Below are positions 1-7,138 of a DNA stretch of 7,138 bases, piece after piece. The stretch comes from a virus (taxonomy: Duplodnaviria > Heunggongvirae > Uroviricota > Caudoviricetes). The notes below the pieces were generated by a model. The model searched no databases. It was given only the letters and a program-made list of their open reading frames with translations, and had not been told where the DNA came from. The position numbers were made by a program, and so were the translations under genes. How positions within the stretch are numbered: the first letter of the stretch is position 1; every line of letters starts with the position of its first letter. The stretch lies in IMG/VR virus record IMGVR_UViG_2711768034_000004; one strand, given 5' to 3'.

Positions 1-206
1 GGAACAACCTGTTCTCCGGCGGCGACAGCAGTAAGACTTCCTTCCTGGTATTGCTTACGCCAGAGAAATAACTGGCTGGCTGCTACACCATGTTGCCGGG
101 CAACGAGGGAGACCGTCATCCCCGGTTCAAAGCTCTGCTGAACAATTGCGATCTTTTCCTGTGTGGTACGCCGTCTGCGTTTCTCCGGCCCTAAGACATC
201 AATCAT
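1..206 (-). CDS. insC: IS2 transposase OrfA (InsC), N-terminal 68 codons; partial, 3' end outside window
   Basis: ATG at 204-206 on minus strand, preceded by GGAGAACAG. Translation [68 protein letters not shown] matches recalled IS2 OrfA. Absent from the ORF track because there is no stop in the window. Confidence 0.85.
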
Positions 207-297
207 CTGTTCTCCAATGACTAGTCTAAAAACTAGTATTAAGACTATCACTTATTTAAGTGATATTGGTTGTCTGGAGATTCAGGGGGCCAGTCTA
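1..297 (-). mobile_element. IS2 insertion sequence, left-end portion (terminal inverted repeat plus start of orfA); element continues past window start
   Basis: Reverse complement of 1-297 reads TAGACTGGCCCCCTGAATCTCCAGACAACCAATATCACTTAAATAAGTGATAGTCTTAATACTAGTTTTTAGACTAGTCATTGGAGAACAGATGATTGATG..., which I recognise as the IS2 left terminus. Terminal CCAGTCTA lies at 290-297; flanking sequence changes character at 298. Confidence 0.88.
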
Positions 298-3119
298 GTT
301 AACGACCTGACAGTTATATCCTGATTCCATCCGGAAACAACAACCTGACTCCACGCTGTCCAGTTTCCATTAACAACAAAGCGAACGTATATACGTTTTG
401 TGTCGCTGTTAATCAGCGTTTGCATGTTCGCATAATCTGAATCCCTAACCTTACGAGTCGACTCTACACGGAGCAAAAAGTTACCGGCTATGCCGTCAGG
501 CTTATTGGTAATATTTGCACCACCTGCAGAGGATGGACAAATATAGTATTTAACTGCCCCGGCATCTGACTTGATGATGGTCAGGTTGTTAAGATTAACC
601 GTCTGGCCGTCAATGTTTTCCGGCTCGATGGCTCCTGCTATCCCGGCACTGAACGTAGCAACGGCTGAAAACGCTGTCGTACCTTTGAAAGCCAGTTGAC
701 CACCAATCGTTAATCCCTTGTCGAGTTTCGCTTGCGTGATCAATTTGCTGTTTTGTTTCTGATCAGGACTCTCACCAAAAGCCAGATCCCCATTAGTATC
801 AATTCCAAGATACTTTGGGTTCATGTTGTCTAACTTAAACCCAATGGACACATTTTCAGAAGAACCAGAACGCGTTAAAACCAACGGCGTGTGCTGTACT
901 CCATAGATGCTGAGCGTAGTTGCCGATGAGTCAGTGTCGGTATTTGCAATCTCAATCGTTCTGCTTTTAATTTTATACGCTACTGTGAGATCACGGACTT
1001 CAACCCTCCCGTCGTGACGAACAACAAGATCCCCTCCTGATGTCCCCCCTGCTGTCTTTGCCCTGATGCGAACTTCGCCAAGCGAATCAGTGTTAGGACC
1101 AGCATAGATTATGCCGCGCTCTGTGTTATCGCCAGTATAAAACCGCAAAGCGGTGACTCCACTGTCTGCCCGCAGGAAGACTGACGGTGTACCTTTTTTG
1201 ATTGTCAAGTCACAGGTCATTGTATCGCCGGTTTTTTTTACCTGCGCATCGTTCGTTACGTTGCCAAGTCCAACATCCGATTTCGACGGCTTGTTTGCCG
1301 AGCCGTATAGCTCATTGATGCTAAAAGTCCCGTTGTTAAGCCGGGCATCGTTGCCGGCATAGATCTTAATCTTCGCGGTTGAGTAGTCGATATTGATCGC
1401 TGACCACGTATCGCCGCACCGCGAGAATATACCAGAACCGTGGCTATAAATGGTCGCCGTGCTTCCGGTCGGCTTATCACCGCGCCAGAAATGACCACCT
1501 TTGTCACGCAGAGCTTTTAAGATCTCTACATCGCTCATCTTGCCGTTTGTTGATATCCCGCTACCGCCAAGACCGAAAGCGCCTGTAAGCATAGCATTAG
1601 AAAGACCCAAATCTGCTTTAGTCGGCTTGTTTAACTGGTCGTAAATCCTTACAACGGGGCTTTCAACATATCCAGAAGGCGCGGCGGTTTGCTTAACAAA
1701 TCCGTCTGGAATGTATAATTCCGTGCGTGCCGTCTGCGCCAGTACCGCAACCTTTGCGCCGTTGATAAATGCACGCTGGAAGGCCCAAACCTCAATAAAG
1801 CCATCATCTTTAACCAGGCCGTAACGCATTTGCATGCTATTGATTAGCCCGGTTGGCCCTAAACGGCGTATACTCAGGTAACGAGATACATTATCAGCAG
1901 TAAGCGAAGAAGGCAGACCGCGCGCCGAGATCTCGATAAAGTCAATGTTTCCGTAAGGGGAGCCGTAGTCACCGCCGTTAGTAACCATTAGCGTTACATG
2001 GCAATTGTTGCTTCCGGGATCGGAAAGTTTCGCGATCTTTATGTAAAAAGACTCATTACCAGTAACAACGGGCCAATCGTATTGCGTCATCGGGCTGACG
2101 AGTCCCCCGACCTTGTCGAGATATTCTTTCGCCTTGTTCTCTGACGCTTTAGCGTTGGTTTCGCTGACCTTTGCTGCTGACTCACTATTTTTCGCGTTGG
2201 TTTCTGATTTTTTGGCTGCTGTCGCGGAATTTGCCGATGCAGTTTGTGAGTCTGCTGCCGCCTGTGCGCTGTTATCCGCATTCATCTCAGACGTTTTTGC
2301 GGCCTTCGCGGAATTTCCTGCCGCCGTTGCCGAGGAAGCTGCACTGCCGGCGCTCGAGGCTGCGCTCGTTTCTGATGATTTTGCCGCCACTTTTGAAGCC
2401 GACGCATCCCGGGCTGAGGTGGCAGCTTCTGACGCTTTCGTGGTCGCGGTGGATGCAGAAGTGGCCGCAGATTTTTGTGATGCTGCGGCATTCGTTTCTG
2501 ACGTTTTCGCTGCACCGGCACTGGTGGCTGCCGCGCTTTTTGAAGACTCTGCAGCGGCAGCACTTTTTGATGCTTCAGTAGCCTTTGTTGATGCCGTTCC
2601 TGCGCTGGAAGACGCTGACTGAGCCGACGACGCGGCCTGTCCGGCTGACGTGCTGGCTGCGCGTGCGGAGTCCGCAGCATCAGTCGCATGGGTTGCCGCC
2701 TCACGGGCTGATGTGCGGGCATCACTGGCTGACTTCTTCGCGGCTGCCGTGTTCTGTGCCACTGCGGACGCGTTACGCGCCACCTCTTCCACCATCAGTT
2801 CAAAGCGGCGCAGTGCCTCCGGACGGACATCATCCTCCGTCATGGCACCGAGAAAATCATTCAGCGTACCCGGTTGTGAGTCTTCATACACGGTGATGGT
2901 CCCGGCATGCGATGGCGGGAAGCCTTCCACCAACAGAATAACGCTGTACTGACCGTACTCAACGTCCATGCTGTAACGCCCGGCTTCATCCGGGTTTTCT
3001 GAGGCCACTGTGTTCACCACCACCGTGGTGCTGTTGCGCCTGGCCTTTAGCTGAATGGTGCAGTTTTGTATCGGCTTACCTGCGCCATCTTTCAGTACAC
3101 CTGAAATCCGTACTGCCAT
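282..3119 (-). CDS. stf: Lambdoid side tail fiber protein (lambda Stf homolog), 945 aa as read; 3' end interrupted by IS2, which supplies the last 4-5 codons and the stop
   Basis: N-terminal ~110 aa (MAVRISGVLKDGAGKPIQNCTIQLKARRNSTTVVVNTV...GRYSMDVEYGQYSVIL...FPPSHAGTITVYEDSQPGTLNDFL) is near-identical to recalled lambda Stf (orf-401) N-terminus. This is followed by an Ala/Ser/Thr-rich repeat region and a ~600 aa distal domain. ATG at 3117-3119 is preceded by a G-run RBS. The ORF reads across the IS2 boundary at 297/298: ...VRSLT then RLAP-stop from IS2. Confidence 0.85.
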   Translation of the reverse strand: MAVRISGVLKDGAGKPIQNCTIQLKARRNSTTVVVNTVASENPDEAGRYSMDVEYGQYSVILLVEGFPPSHAGTITVYEDSQPGTLNDFLGAMTEDDVRPEALRRFELMVEEVARNASAVAQNTAAAKKSASDARTSAREAATHATDAADSARAASTSAGQAASSAQSASSSAGTASTKATEASKSAAAAESSKSAAATSAGAAKTSETNAAASQKSAATSASTATTKASEAATSARDASASKVAAKSSETSAASSAGSAASSATAAGNSAKAAKTSEMNADNSAQAAADSQTASANSATAAKKSETNAKNSESAAKVSETNAKASENKAKEYLDKVGGLVSPMTQYDWPVVTGNESFYIKIAKLSDPGSNNCHVTLMVTNGGDYGSPYGNIDFIEISARGLPSSLTADNVSRYLSIRRLGPTGLINSMQMRYGLVKDDGFIEVWAFQRAFINGAKVAVLAQTARTELYIPDGFVKQTAAPSGYVESPVVRIYDQLNKPTKADLGLSNAMLTGAFGLGGSGISTNGKMSDVEILKALRDKGGHFWRGDKPTGSTATIYSHGSGIFSRCGDTWSAINIDYSTAKIKIYAGNDARLNNGTFSINELYGSANKPSKSDVGLGNVTNDAQVKKTGDTMTCDLTIKKGTPSVFLRADSGVTALRFYTGDNTERGIIYAGPNTDSLGEVRIRAKTAGGTSGGDLVVRHDGRVEVRDLTVAYKIKSRTIEIANTDTDSSATTLSIYGVQHTPLVLTRSGSSENVSIGFKLDNMNPKYLGIDTNGDLAFGESPDQKQNSKLITQAKLDKGLTIGGQLAFKGTTAFSAVATFSAGIAGAIEPENIDGQTVNLNNLTIIKSDAGAVKYYICPSSAGGANITNKPDGIAGNFLLRVESTRKVRDSDYANMQTLINSDTKRIYVRFVVNGNWTAWSQVVVSGWNQDITVRSLTRLAP
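2130..2780 (-). repeat. Low-complexity Ala/Ser/Thr/Lys-rich repetitive segment inside stf (about aa 114-330)
   Basis: Translated segment AAAKKSASDARTSAREAATHATDAADSARAASTSAGQAASSAQSASSSAGTASTKATEASKSAAAAESSKSAAATSAGAAKTSETNAAASQKSAATSAS... consists of degenerate short periodic motifs, as in lambda Stf / T4 gp37-type fiber shafts. It generates several long spurious ORFs on the opposite strand and in other frames. Confidence 0.7.
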
Positions 3120-3130
3120 ATTCCCCCCAC

Positions 3131-3155
3131 AAAAAAACCCGCCTGAACCGGCGGG
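3131..3155 (-). terminator. Candidate rho-independent terminator between lom remnant and stf
   Basis: Plus strand A7 (3131-3137) then CCCGCC (3138-3143), 6-nt loop, GGCGGG (3150-3155). On the minus-strand RNA this is a 6-bp GC stem followed by U7, 29 nt after the lom stop and immediately upstream of the stf RBS. Confidence 0.5.
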
Positions 3156-3183
3156 CTGTCATAACACTGTGTTACCTGGCTAA

Positions 3184-3384
3184 TCAGAATTTATAACCGA
3201 CACCCACGATGAAACCGTCAGTGCGCCAGTCACCACTGCCGGAACCTTCATAAGCAATATCAATGGCCACGGATTCGGTCGGGTTAAACTGCACGCCAGC
3301 CCCCCACGCCAGAGACGTGTTGCTGTGGCGACCGTCATCACTTCCGGTCAGCACATCGTGCGTTTTCCCCTTGTTGTCAGTTAG
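3184..3384 (-). pseudogene. lom: lom (Ail/Lom-family outer membrane protein) C-terminal fragment, about 65 codons, no start codon
   Basis: Minus-strand translation ends ...SLAWGAGVQFNPTESVAIDIAYEGSGSGDWRTDGFIVGVGYKF-stop (stop at 3184-3186), matching recalled lambda Lom C-terminus ...SVAWSAGIQINPAASVVVDIAYEGSGSGDWRTDGFIVGVGYKF. The frame is closed upstream by a stop at 3418-3420 with no ATG, so the N-terminal two thirds of lom are missing. Confidence 0.75.
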
Positions 3385-4598: not shown

Positions 4599-4809
4599 TT
4601 TGTCGCTCCATGCGTTTGCTCTTCACTTACGGCTAAAAATATAACGTCAAATCACTCAGCATGAAAGAGTTAAAGATTCAGCGCGTTTCCCTTACATAAT
4701 CTGTCGTTTGTATTCTCTTCAGGCATACCGGAAAGACTAGGTATTGTCACACAACCAATACCATCGACAATCGAGATTTATACCTATTCGGTAATGTTTA
4801 AATATAACA

Positions 4810-4832
4810 AAACCCCGTAAAAACGAGGTTTA
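4810..4832 (-). terminator. Weak candidate terminator downstream of gnsB
   Basis: Imperfect hairpin AAACCTCG/CGGGGTTT (one G-U pair on the minus-strand RNA) with a 6-nt loop, followed by a moderately U-rich tail; about 60 nt past the gnsB stop. Confidence 0.3.
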
Positions 4833-4891
4833 TGGGTAATTTGTATTGTTGAATAGCATCTGATGAGAAATTGATGCTAATACTAAACAGA

Positions 4892-5065
4892 CTAGATTAA
4901 ATCAATCTTGATATCATAGCTTTCAAGACCAGTCATTTTTTCCCGTGCAGTAAACTGGATACTGGTAACTTCTTTCCCGGTCTTTTTCTTAAGCTCAATG
5001 ATTTTTTTTGTTATATATTCAGAAATATCTGCTTCTGTTTTTGTTTTTAACTCTTCAATGTTCAT
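4892..5065 (-). CDS. gnsB: GnsA/GnsB-family protein (57 aa)
   Basis: MNIEELKTKTEADISEYITKKIIELKKKTGKEVTSIQFTAREKMTGLESYDIKIDLI matches the recalled GnsA/GnsB family (FTAREKMTGLESYD motif). RBS AAGAGGAA sits 6 nt upstream of the ATG at 5063-5065. The ORF-track version (88 aa, 4892..5158) uses an upstream in-frame start that I do not favour. Confidence 0.85.
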   Translation of the reverse strand: MNIEELKTKTEADISEYITKKIIELKKKTGKEVTSIQFTAREKMTGLESYDIKIDLI

Positions 5066-5237
5066 CATTTCCTCTTTTAGTCTGTTATGACTTTCCTGGT
5101 ACACAGTAGTGTCAATTATATGGAGCAAACGTATAAAAGATAAGATGAAACATCGCAATAATCAACATACGACGGTCTAAATTTCACACAAACAGATAAA
5201 GATGATTATCATTTATTATCAATGCATTAGAATCAAA

Positions 5238-5429
5238 TCAATTCAAGAGTCTCATTGCTGCTTCCAGAATTTCTTCTGAAGTTACATGTCGATCCGCTGC
5301 TACATAAATGACTTTATGATCTCCGGTCAGAGATGGAAACCCTGCAGCCATTACAGTGAGGTGTGTTGTTTCGCCATTTGGATATTCACGCATGATGGTG
5401 TTAACTCCGGTCATCACTGGCACTACCAT
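5238..5429 (-). CDS. Hypothetical small protein (up to 63 aa), ynfN-like by position in a Qin-type layout; start codon uncertain (in-frame ATGs at codons 1, 6 and 13)
   Basis: ORF MVVPVMTGVNTIMREYPNGETTHLTVMAAGFPSLTGDHKVIYVAADRHVTSEEILEAAMRLLN lies between gnsB and cspI on the same strand. GGAG is found 11 nt upstream of the third ATG only. Confidence 0.45.
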   Translation of the reverse strand: MVVPVMTGVNTIMREYPNGETTHLTVMAAGFPSLTGDHKVIYVAADRHVTSEEILEAAMRLLN

Positions 5430-5511
5430 TGCTGGTTCAGAGTTAAAAAAACTATTATTTTTTTCATAATGTTACCGTAATATGTGAGTATCCATCGACT
5501 AGACACTAAGC

Positions 5512-5531
5512 AAAAAAGCTCCCGAAGGAGC
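5512..5531 (-). terminator. Rho-independent terminator (minus strand) with UUCG tetraloop
   Basis: Plus strand A6 (5512-5517), GCTCC (5518-5522), CGAA, GGAGC (5527-5531). On the minus-strand RNA: GCUCC-UUCG-GGAGC followed by U6. It begins 9 nt after the stop of the 5540-5794 ORF. Confidence 0.6.
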
Positions 5532-5539
5532 CTTCATTT

Positions 5540-5755
5540 TCACTTTCTTAAATCTAACGATAGACGGCTAACATTTAAGTATTGTGAAATATTATCAAAT
5601 GTAATCATCATTGATTTACAAAAGATACATTTTGCCCCGAAAGGATTCCTGTCAGAAACATCAAAAGATGATGTTCTATACTGAGAACCATGGCAACACG
5701 GGCATCTAAAGTGAATATGGTTTGTAATATTTTCTACCTCAAAGTGCCACAACAT
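5540..5755 (-). CDS. Candidate Ogr/Delta-like zinc-finger protein (71 aa from ATG at 5755; 84 aa if TTG at 5794 is used), overlapping the 3' end of cspI
   Basis: Translation ...[46 protein letters not shown]... has a C-x2-C-x21-C-x2-C arrangement with a conserved RTS after the first Cys pair, resembling recalled P2 Ogr (CPLCQHAAHARTSRYITDTTKERYHQCQNVNCSATFITYESVQRY). A strong terminator follows immediately. Caveats: AT-rich region, start overlaps cspI by at least 17 nt, no clear RBS. Confidence 0.4.
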
Positions 5756-5951
5756 GAACAGCCGCGGGGCCTTTAGGTCCGTTCTCAATACCAAATTCGA
5801 CTTCCTGATTCTCAGTTAACGTTTTGAAATCGTTGCTCTGAATAGCTGAGAAATGGACAAACACATCTTTGCTACCATCTTTCGGCGTGATGAAACCAAA
5901 ACCTTTTTCAGGGTTAAACCATTTCACTAAACCAGTCATTGTGTTAGACAT
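5739..5951 (-). CDS. cspI: CspA-family cold-shock protein (70 aa), CspI-like
   Basis: [70 protein letters not shown] carries the cold-shock domain RNP motifs (KGFGFI, VFVHF) and is nearly identical to recalled CspI. The ORF track begins one Met earlier (5954). Confidence 0.9.
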
Positions 5952-6200
5952 CATTATTACCTTTTGAAGAAGTTAGCCCTTGGGCAGAATGATCCGAAAA
6001 AAATATCAGAGAGAAAAACCAAAAAGGAAATCTCAAGAGGTACAAATAATAAAATTATAACAATGACTGCTTCAGATAATTTTGTAACAAACCAGAACAC
6101 CATTAACGCATGATTAACCAACCATAGCAAGGATTACTTTTGTAAAGAAAAACACACGAATGAAACAATAGCTTTATTTATTAATAAAACGTGTCATTCT
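5952..6200 (-). promoter_or_regulatory. Long AT-rich 5' leader and promoter region of cspI
   Basis: About 250 nt of AT-rich non-coding sequence upstream of cspI, with ...CTTCAAAAGGTAATA-ATG similar to the cspA leader end (AAAGGTAATACACT-ATG). A possible cold-box-like AATGACACG lies near 6190-6200 on the minus strand. Boundaries are approximate. Confidence 0.35.
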
Positions 6201-6313
6201 GTCTAATGACCTTTTATCTTACCCTTAAGATTTCAAGGATTTTGACTCATGGAAGAGTCCTTTTTATTTAAATTTCACATTCAGCGCTAAAAATAATCCG
6301 ATTTAATATTAAT

Positions 6314-7138
<825 letters not shown>

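Follow-up and report, generated by a model that had tools for sequence, protein, structure and literature searches.

The long minus-strand open reading frame (ORF) of the analyzed DNA (7,138 nt; hereafter the window) is very likely a side tail fiber gene of mosaic lambdoid type that has been disrupted by IS2, carried by a Qin-type defective prophage of Escherichia coli. The window is a piece of such a prophage, and near-identical sequence was found in many complete E. coli genomes. In the preliminary description, the last ~600 aa of the ORF had been taken for the distal end of the fiber. However, IS2 cuts the gene at codon 941, and the native gene runs 317 codons further, outside the window. 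Because the insertion removes the tip and the chaperone, the receptor-binding end is not part of the stretch kept in the window. The features of the window are as follows.

1..297, minus strand: IS2 left end, with IRL and the beginning of orfA, continuing off the window; 100% identity to an IS2 copy
282..297, minus strand: IS2-derived end of the ORF, comprising the third base of codon 941, the codons for RLAP and a TGA stop, as read from the sequence
298..302, minus strand: one copy of the 5-bp IS2 target duplication TTAAC, from the junction sequences; the other copy lies beyond IS2, outside the window
282..3119, minus strand: truncated side tail fiber ORF, 945 codons and a stop; pseudogene allele of the 1258-aa Qin-type prophage fiber
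298..2099, minus strand: aa 341-941, non-lambda middle module (PHROG 24369, AF2 model, Foldseek, BFVD)
2100..2717, minus strand: aa 135-340, Ser/Ala/Thr-rich shaft (34% Ala, 22% Ser), lambda-like to aa 284 (window 2268)
2718..3119, minus strand: aa 1-134, lambda Stf-type N-terminal domain for tail-tip attachment (PF08400, PDB 9e7m/9mgh, lambda identity)
6843..7138: IS3 end
Elsewhere in the window: rzpQ with an embedded Rz1-like frame, cspI, ynfQ, ynfN, gnsB, terminase fragments and a lom fragment

At every base (297/297), window positions 1-297 agree with the final 297 bp of an IS2 copy in L002 (its positions 1036-1332), and they match thousands of plasmid copies annotated as IS2 transposase. 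In the direction of the gene, the junction reads ...GTC AGG TCG TTA AC/T AGA CTG GCC CCC TGA, with the slash marking the boundary, so IS2 provides both the four C-terminal residues (RLAP) and the stop codon. The whole insertion can be seen in strain H2, which is 100% identical to window 1-3383. Its junctions read ...tcgTTAAC/TAGACTGG...IS2...AAATCCA/TTAACcacatct, and the window junction is identical. TTAAC flanks the terminal sequences of IS2 on both sides in H2 as a 5-bp target duplication, and the reading frame resumes after the second copy, at the far IS2 end. Joining the H2 parts across IS2 yielded a frame of 3777 nt and 1258 codons with no internal stop. PGAP annotates interrupted copies as pseudogenes, the H2 sequence identical to that of the window being marked 'incomplete; missing C-terminus'. 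Since IS2 sits at codon 941 and the gene goes on beyond it, positions 282-2129 represent 16 nt of IS2 and the middle domains of a 1258-aa fiber. In the source genome, the rest of the gene probably lies beyond IS2, as judged from H2 and EC190486, which share the junction. An origin of the fragment beyond IS2 from another fiber (K-12-type StfQ with Tfa) was ruled out, because the frame continues and is colinear with the intact gene of E. coli HS.

Misassembly is frequent at IS elements, and both ends of the window fall within IS copies. The IS2/fiber junction could therefore be suspected of being an assembly artifact, with the gene intact in the source and the fiber joined directly to ...CACATCTAGTCC. 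However, the insertion has a proper 5-bp target duplication, and the same junction occurs in the complete genomes of both H2 and EC190486, which together make an artifact next to impossible. In addition, 156 member sequences are represented by the exact 945-aa product and 205 by an allele of 93% identity that has the same RLAP tail; the RLAP* ending was also found in P0001 and P0035.

The uninterrupted gene is present in E. coli HS, where it encodes a protein of 1258 aa (WP_000290867.1, 'prophage tail fiber N-terminal domain-containing protein'). The fiber gene of the HS Qin prophage is the same gene at the same locus as that of the window, with lom upstream and, on the other side, a tfa remnant and pinQ. 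The two alleles differ at 4 of the 2822 nt that they share and, over aa 1-941, at 2 aa, G636C and I824S. Thus, compared with the HS fiber, the window allele carries these two substitutions, is cut by IS2 at codon 941 and is without aa 942-1258. G636C hits the nearly invariant Gly of a GDTMTGDL motif, located at aa 631-638 of the middle module. With a threshold of at least 80% coverage of a 600-nt junction query, the uninterrupted junction was present in 230 of 5426 complete E. coli genomes.

The missing 317 aa consist of a variable tip domain (aa 942-1113) and a Peptidase_S74 chaperone domain (aa 1114-1258). PF13884 (Peptidase_S74, 'chaperone of endosialidase') was detected in these 317 aa (E = 1.8e-12) and in the 915-aa protein P0002 (E = 1.8e-16), and was absent from the 945-aa window ORF in a Pfam search. 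Because the domain is found beyond IS2 and in P0002 but not in the window, the gene family belongs to the S74 fibers and the window allele has lost the domain. The earlier suggestion to look for an intramolecular chaperone was thus right for the family, the intact allele of which contains PF13884, but not for the window ORF. In the intact HS allele, SDRDLK at aa 1115-1120, outside the window, has the S-x4-K spacing of a Ser/Lys dyad, and a long C-terminal helix follows the S74 domain. A family profile matched, in its C-terminal parts, an 'L-shaped tail fiber assembly' chain (8hqz, E = 4.5e-14), 6f45 and the MYRF chaperone 7dc3. The AF2 monomer of P0002 had a pLDDT below 50 in the tip and chaperone region, and a Foldseek search with this model returned nothing further than T4 gp34 and pyocin fibers. 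Given this low confidence, the fold proposed for the missing part derives entirely from sequence profiles. PF13884, the SDRxLK motif and the C-terminal helix are shared by the intact allele with known S74 fibers, namely K1F endosialidase, the L-shaped fiber pb1 of T5 and S16 gp37. In contrast, the window copy is without the domain, and aa 341-941 are unlike the upstream domains of T5 pb1 or the endosialidases. RBPseg classes that combine a coiled-coil N-terminus with S74 have been described (PMC12143355).

These observations bear on the reading of the ORF as a complete fiber, with the last ~600 aa being a functional module for receptor binding that was swapped in and determines host range. The region shows no relationship to the lambda tip and has no HxH motifs, and alleles differ from one another in blocks of domains, a pattern often seen in receptor-binding regions. 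However, the ORF terminates inside IS2, and the intact allele is 317 aa longer, with a tip and an S74 chaperone. The most divergent block among the alleles is the missing tip itself, aa 942-1113, with a median identity to HS of 71% compared with 82-98% in the neighboring blocks. Furthermore, no head or tail genes were found in the prophage, and the fiber gene therefore cannot be a host-range determinant here, as had been proposed for it; nor is the module unusual, given that matches to the distal region at E <= 1e-5 were obtained for ~433 database proteins. Taken together, a complete and functional fiber is highly improbable, and truncation by IS2 is the reading that we follow below.

The N-terminal part of the truncated fiber is of the lambda Stf type. 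A Pfam search of the ORF matched the attachment domain PF08400 (phage_tail_N), expected of a lambda-type Stf, over its full length at aa 1-134 (E = 1.4e-72), and a PDB search matched the N-terminal domain to a 94-aa chain named 'Tail fiber protein' (9e7m/9mgh, E = 7e-52). BLASTP against lambda orf-401 gave 85% identity over aa 1-284 and nothing further, and against orf-314, the His-rich distal half of Stf, it gave no significant similarity (E >= 3.9), confirming that the distal sequence is not that of lambda. The absence of His-rich Gly-x-His-x-His repeats noted in the preliminary description was likewise borne out, as neither HxH nor GxHxH occurs in the 945-aa ORF and no HxH occurs in the 1258-aa intact allele. 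There are 5 His residues in aa 341-941, compared with 16 His, 7 GxHxH and 8 HxH motifs in orf-314. The window gene therefore shares with lambda Stf (orf-401 and orf-314 in lambda PaPa, with Tfa) its N-terminal domain, the first part of the shaft and its position after lom, but it has no His-rich GxHxH tip of the kind seen in orf-314 and T4 gp37. A separate downstream Tfa gene is also missing, and the window itself ends in IS2. The folding helper also differs, being a built-in S74 chaperone in the intact alleles and Tfa in lambda.

In HS, H2 and JNQH498, all that follows of tfa is a 3' remnant (42 codons, 126 bp). The left recombination junction lies in the Ser/Ala-rich shaft, with lambda identity ending at aa 284, and the right junction is marked in intact loci by the tfa remnant, which has 88% nucleotide identity to the end of lambda tfa, and then pinQ. 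The lambda-like part has a G+C content of ~57%, which drops to 46-51% in the new module. The junctions on both sides and this drop in G+C support the swapped-module idea for the gene family: the exchange of the His-rich tip and Tfa of lambda for a multi-domain fiber with a built-in chaperone is real. The original proposal of a swapped receptor-binding module is thus upheld insofar as an unrelated module replaces everything beyond the Ser/Ala-rich shaft, but the tip (aa 942-1113) and the chaperone (aa 1114-1258) are missing from the window. Tandem Repeats Finder detected no DNA repeat in the Ser/Ala-rich region.

The ORF matched PHROG 24369 ('tail fiber protein', E = 6.8e-252) over profile positions 82-804 of 1396, the middle module covering 205-804, and the end of the match at position 804 agrees with the truncation. 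No Pfam or NCBIfam match was obtained for aa 135-945, and a single-sequence PDB search of the ORF returned only matches to the N-terminal domain and the low-complexity shaft. The AF2 model (pLDDT 72.7) predicts four beta-rich domains, at aa ~342-507, 520-620, 630-796 and 831-927, with low-confidence linkers between them. Among solved structures, Foldseek matched the C-terminal region of T4 gp34 (4uxg, E = 1.4e-4) and an R-pyocin fiber (6cl5, probability 0.94-0.96), both weakly; for the knob fold of 6cl5/6cl6, probabilities were 0.80-0.96 but E-values were 7e-3 to 0.1 and TM-scores 0.1-0.2. The T4 gp34 region and the R-type pyocin knobs are therefore the best structural analogues of the modeled domains, but with such TM-scores, 12-16% identity and no NCBIfam or Pfam match, the analogy applies at the level of fiber building blocks only. 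Close E. coli relatives carry the NCBI name 'pyocin knob domain-containing S74 family peptidase'. The label 'pyocin knob' thus comes from NCBI annotation of relatives and, as aa 135-945 matched no NCBIfam or Pfam model, is without HMM confirmation.

For the middle module, the best predicted viral match in BFVD was Gp37 of Klebsiella phage KP27 (E = 1.6e-42), and tblastn found the region whole in Stf of a lambdoid coliphage (78% identity), in fibers of Klebsiella siphophages and T5-like phages (53-54%) and in the 'L-shaped tail fiber' at the gp37 position of Slopekvirus (41%). Slopekvirus Gp37 (phiEap-3, KP27) and the Klebsiella siphophage and T5-like fibers are homologous across nearly all of aa 341-941, with identities of 41% for phiEap-3, 54% for vB_Kpn_K50 and 53% for Roth37. 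However, they differ in N-terminal attachment (a gp36 junction in the myoviruses) and in their tips, and in phiEap-3 the fiber gene is followed by a separate assembly catalyst gene. The best 120 of the ~433 distal-region matches were 83-100% identical, and most of them are already named; the fiber family is ordinary and already catalogued, and none of it is new in kind. In a library clustered at 50% identity, the full four-domain array was kept in only a handful of clusters, and single domains, above all the last one, recurred in many fibers. This recurrence fits the mobile fiber pseudo-domains described previously (PMC12143355).

The same recurrence, namely that the last domain in particular occurs alone in many fibers, could favor a truncated fiber that is still partly active through a lateral RBD within aa 341-941, comparable to the 'T-shaped' dual-RBD fibers of BASEL phages, and that might be salvaged if a lambdoid phage infecting the cell acquired it through recombination. 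There is a precedent in dual-RBD fibers with a T5-like tip and chaperone (10.1101/2024.09.12.612763), and Red recombination enables lambda to acquire stf DNA of Qin (PMC3945230). However, aa 1-945 contain no gp12/collar-type Pfam domain of the kind that characterizes T-shaped dual-RBD fibers, and G636C affects a nearly invariant Gly. By analogy with endosialidase and T5 pb1, trimer folding would not be expected without the chaperone, and a rescue would still require the tip and chaperone from beyond IS2. We therefore regard partial activity as very unlikely and return to an inactive, IS2-truncated copy.

The state of the prophage is consistent with such a copy. At 3382/3383, a 2944-bp deletion has brought a terminase fragment up against the lom 3' end. 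The IS2 cut, the IS3 element, this deletion, the absence of virion genes and G636C together indicate that the fiber copy is non-functional. At most, it may serve as recombination material for incoming lambdoid phages, as in the experiments in which lambda acquired stf DNA, with the Qin and Rac stf regions shown as its source (PMC3945230).

The domain order suggests how the intact fiber may work. An Stf-type N-terminal domain, which docks on the tail tip, and the Ser/Ala-rich shaft precede four beta-rich domains of shaft or knob type (aa 341-941). Beyond these come the variable tip (aa 942-1113) and, at the C-terminus, the S74 chaperone (aa 1114-1258). In endosialidases and T5 pb1, trimer folding is driven by the S74 domain, which afterwards cuts itself off at the Ser of the Ser/Lys dyad. 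In the same way, the chaperone of the intact fiber would drive trimer folding and then cleave itself off at Ser1115 via the dyad in SDRDLK, exposing the tip, which probably recognizes a surface glycan. This arrangement would take the place of the His-rich tip and separate Tfa chaperone of lambda. In the window allele, IS2 has entered at TTAAC within codon 941, and translation would stop after four IS2-encoded residues. Because the tip and the chaperone are lost, the 945-aa product is expected to be incapable of trimer folding and of receptor binding, the folding defect being predicted by analogy with the other S74 proteins. The truncated product could nevertheless be made and have an unforeseen role.

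The significance of these results is mostly corrective, in that an ORF resembling a complete fiber with a novel receptor-binding end is an IS-cut pseudogene, and its real tip has to be sought beyond the window. Among lambdoid side fibers, the intact family is one of many that traded a His-rich tip and Tfa for an S74-chaperone tip, with the Ser/Ala-rich shaft as the crossover zone. Alleles of such fibers in cryptic prophages can supply infecting phages with spare parts, and lambda-based particles could be engineered with them as candidate modules.

The boundary before the tip has been hit by two independent IS3-family insertions within 3 bp, IS2 here and IS3 in Shigella. It is conceivable but unlikely that aa 341-941 hold an independent lateral RBD, making the intact family a dual-receptor, T-shaped-like fiber, or, separately, that the paired insertions reflect selection to switch off the tip and not target-site preference. 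The shaft is also a site of gene disruption, as other genomes have the gene split by frameshifts in the Ser/Ala-rich region. Splits within this region are the origin of the 'S74 family peptidase' entries of 915 aa with MTQYDWP as their start, with PGAP calling the upstream part a separate pseudogene fragment. A natural two-gene arrangement was rejected for these entries, because the upstream part in JNQH498 is a pseudogene fragment of the same fiber.

Compared with the uninterrupted allele of E. coli HS, the fibre encoded in the window has only two amino-acid changes, G636C (codon at window 1212-1214) and I824S (codon at window 648-650). G636C lies within the fibre motif GDTMTGDL, and the glycine that it replaces is conserved at 90% or more in this motif.

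Interruption of the fibre gene by insertion sequences was also found in other alleles. An allele 93% identical to that of the window (P0035, with 205 member sequences) ends in the same IS2-derived RLAP tail as the window ORF, and the Shigella allele P0003 (951 aa) is interrupted by an IS3 end located 3 bp upstream of the window's IS2 site. Two independent insertions of IS3-family elements, no more than 3 bp apart, have therefore occurred immediately before the tip domain. Downstream of the fibre with its own chaperone, the E. coli HS locus (L007) and a second comparison locus (L002) carry the surviving 3' end of a lambda-like tfa gene and, beyond it, the invertase gene pinQ. An older invertible Stf/Tfa tip module has left these vestiges.

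Features in the comparison loci
L009 (Shigella) 5320-5360: IS3 end (TGATCCTACCCACG...) interrupting the fibre gene
L007 (E. coli HS) 5804-5929: 42-codon 3' remnant of tfa
L002 832-957: the same tfa remnant

Features in the remainder of the window
3382/3383: site where 2944 bp present in strains H2 and EC190486 are deleted
6314-6811, minus strand: rzpQ, an Rz-type gene
6364-6660, minus strand: out-of-frame ORF embedded in rzpQ
6843-7138: IS3, left end

The deletion has removed the 5' part of lom, a fragment of J (tail tip) and part of a terminase fragment, and at its junction what is left of lom, its final ~200 bp (3184-3383), abuts a terminase-A fragment. The G+C content of window 4800-6300, which contains the cold-shock-type genes cspI and ynfQ together with ynfN and gnsB, is low (30-39%, versus 49-61% in the fibre gene). 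The ORF embedded in rzpQ encodes a lipoprotein-like signal (...LIVLTSC...), a sequence feature consistent with a nested Rz1-type gene (rzoQ). The IS3 end, which shows 100% identity to the IS3 copy located in ynfN in strain H2, is inserted just past the rzpQ start, at the place occupied by rrrQ in related genomes; the window is therefore flanked by IS2 and IS3.
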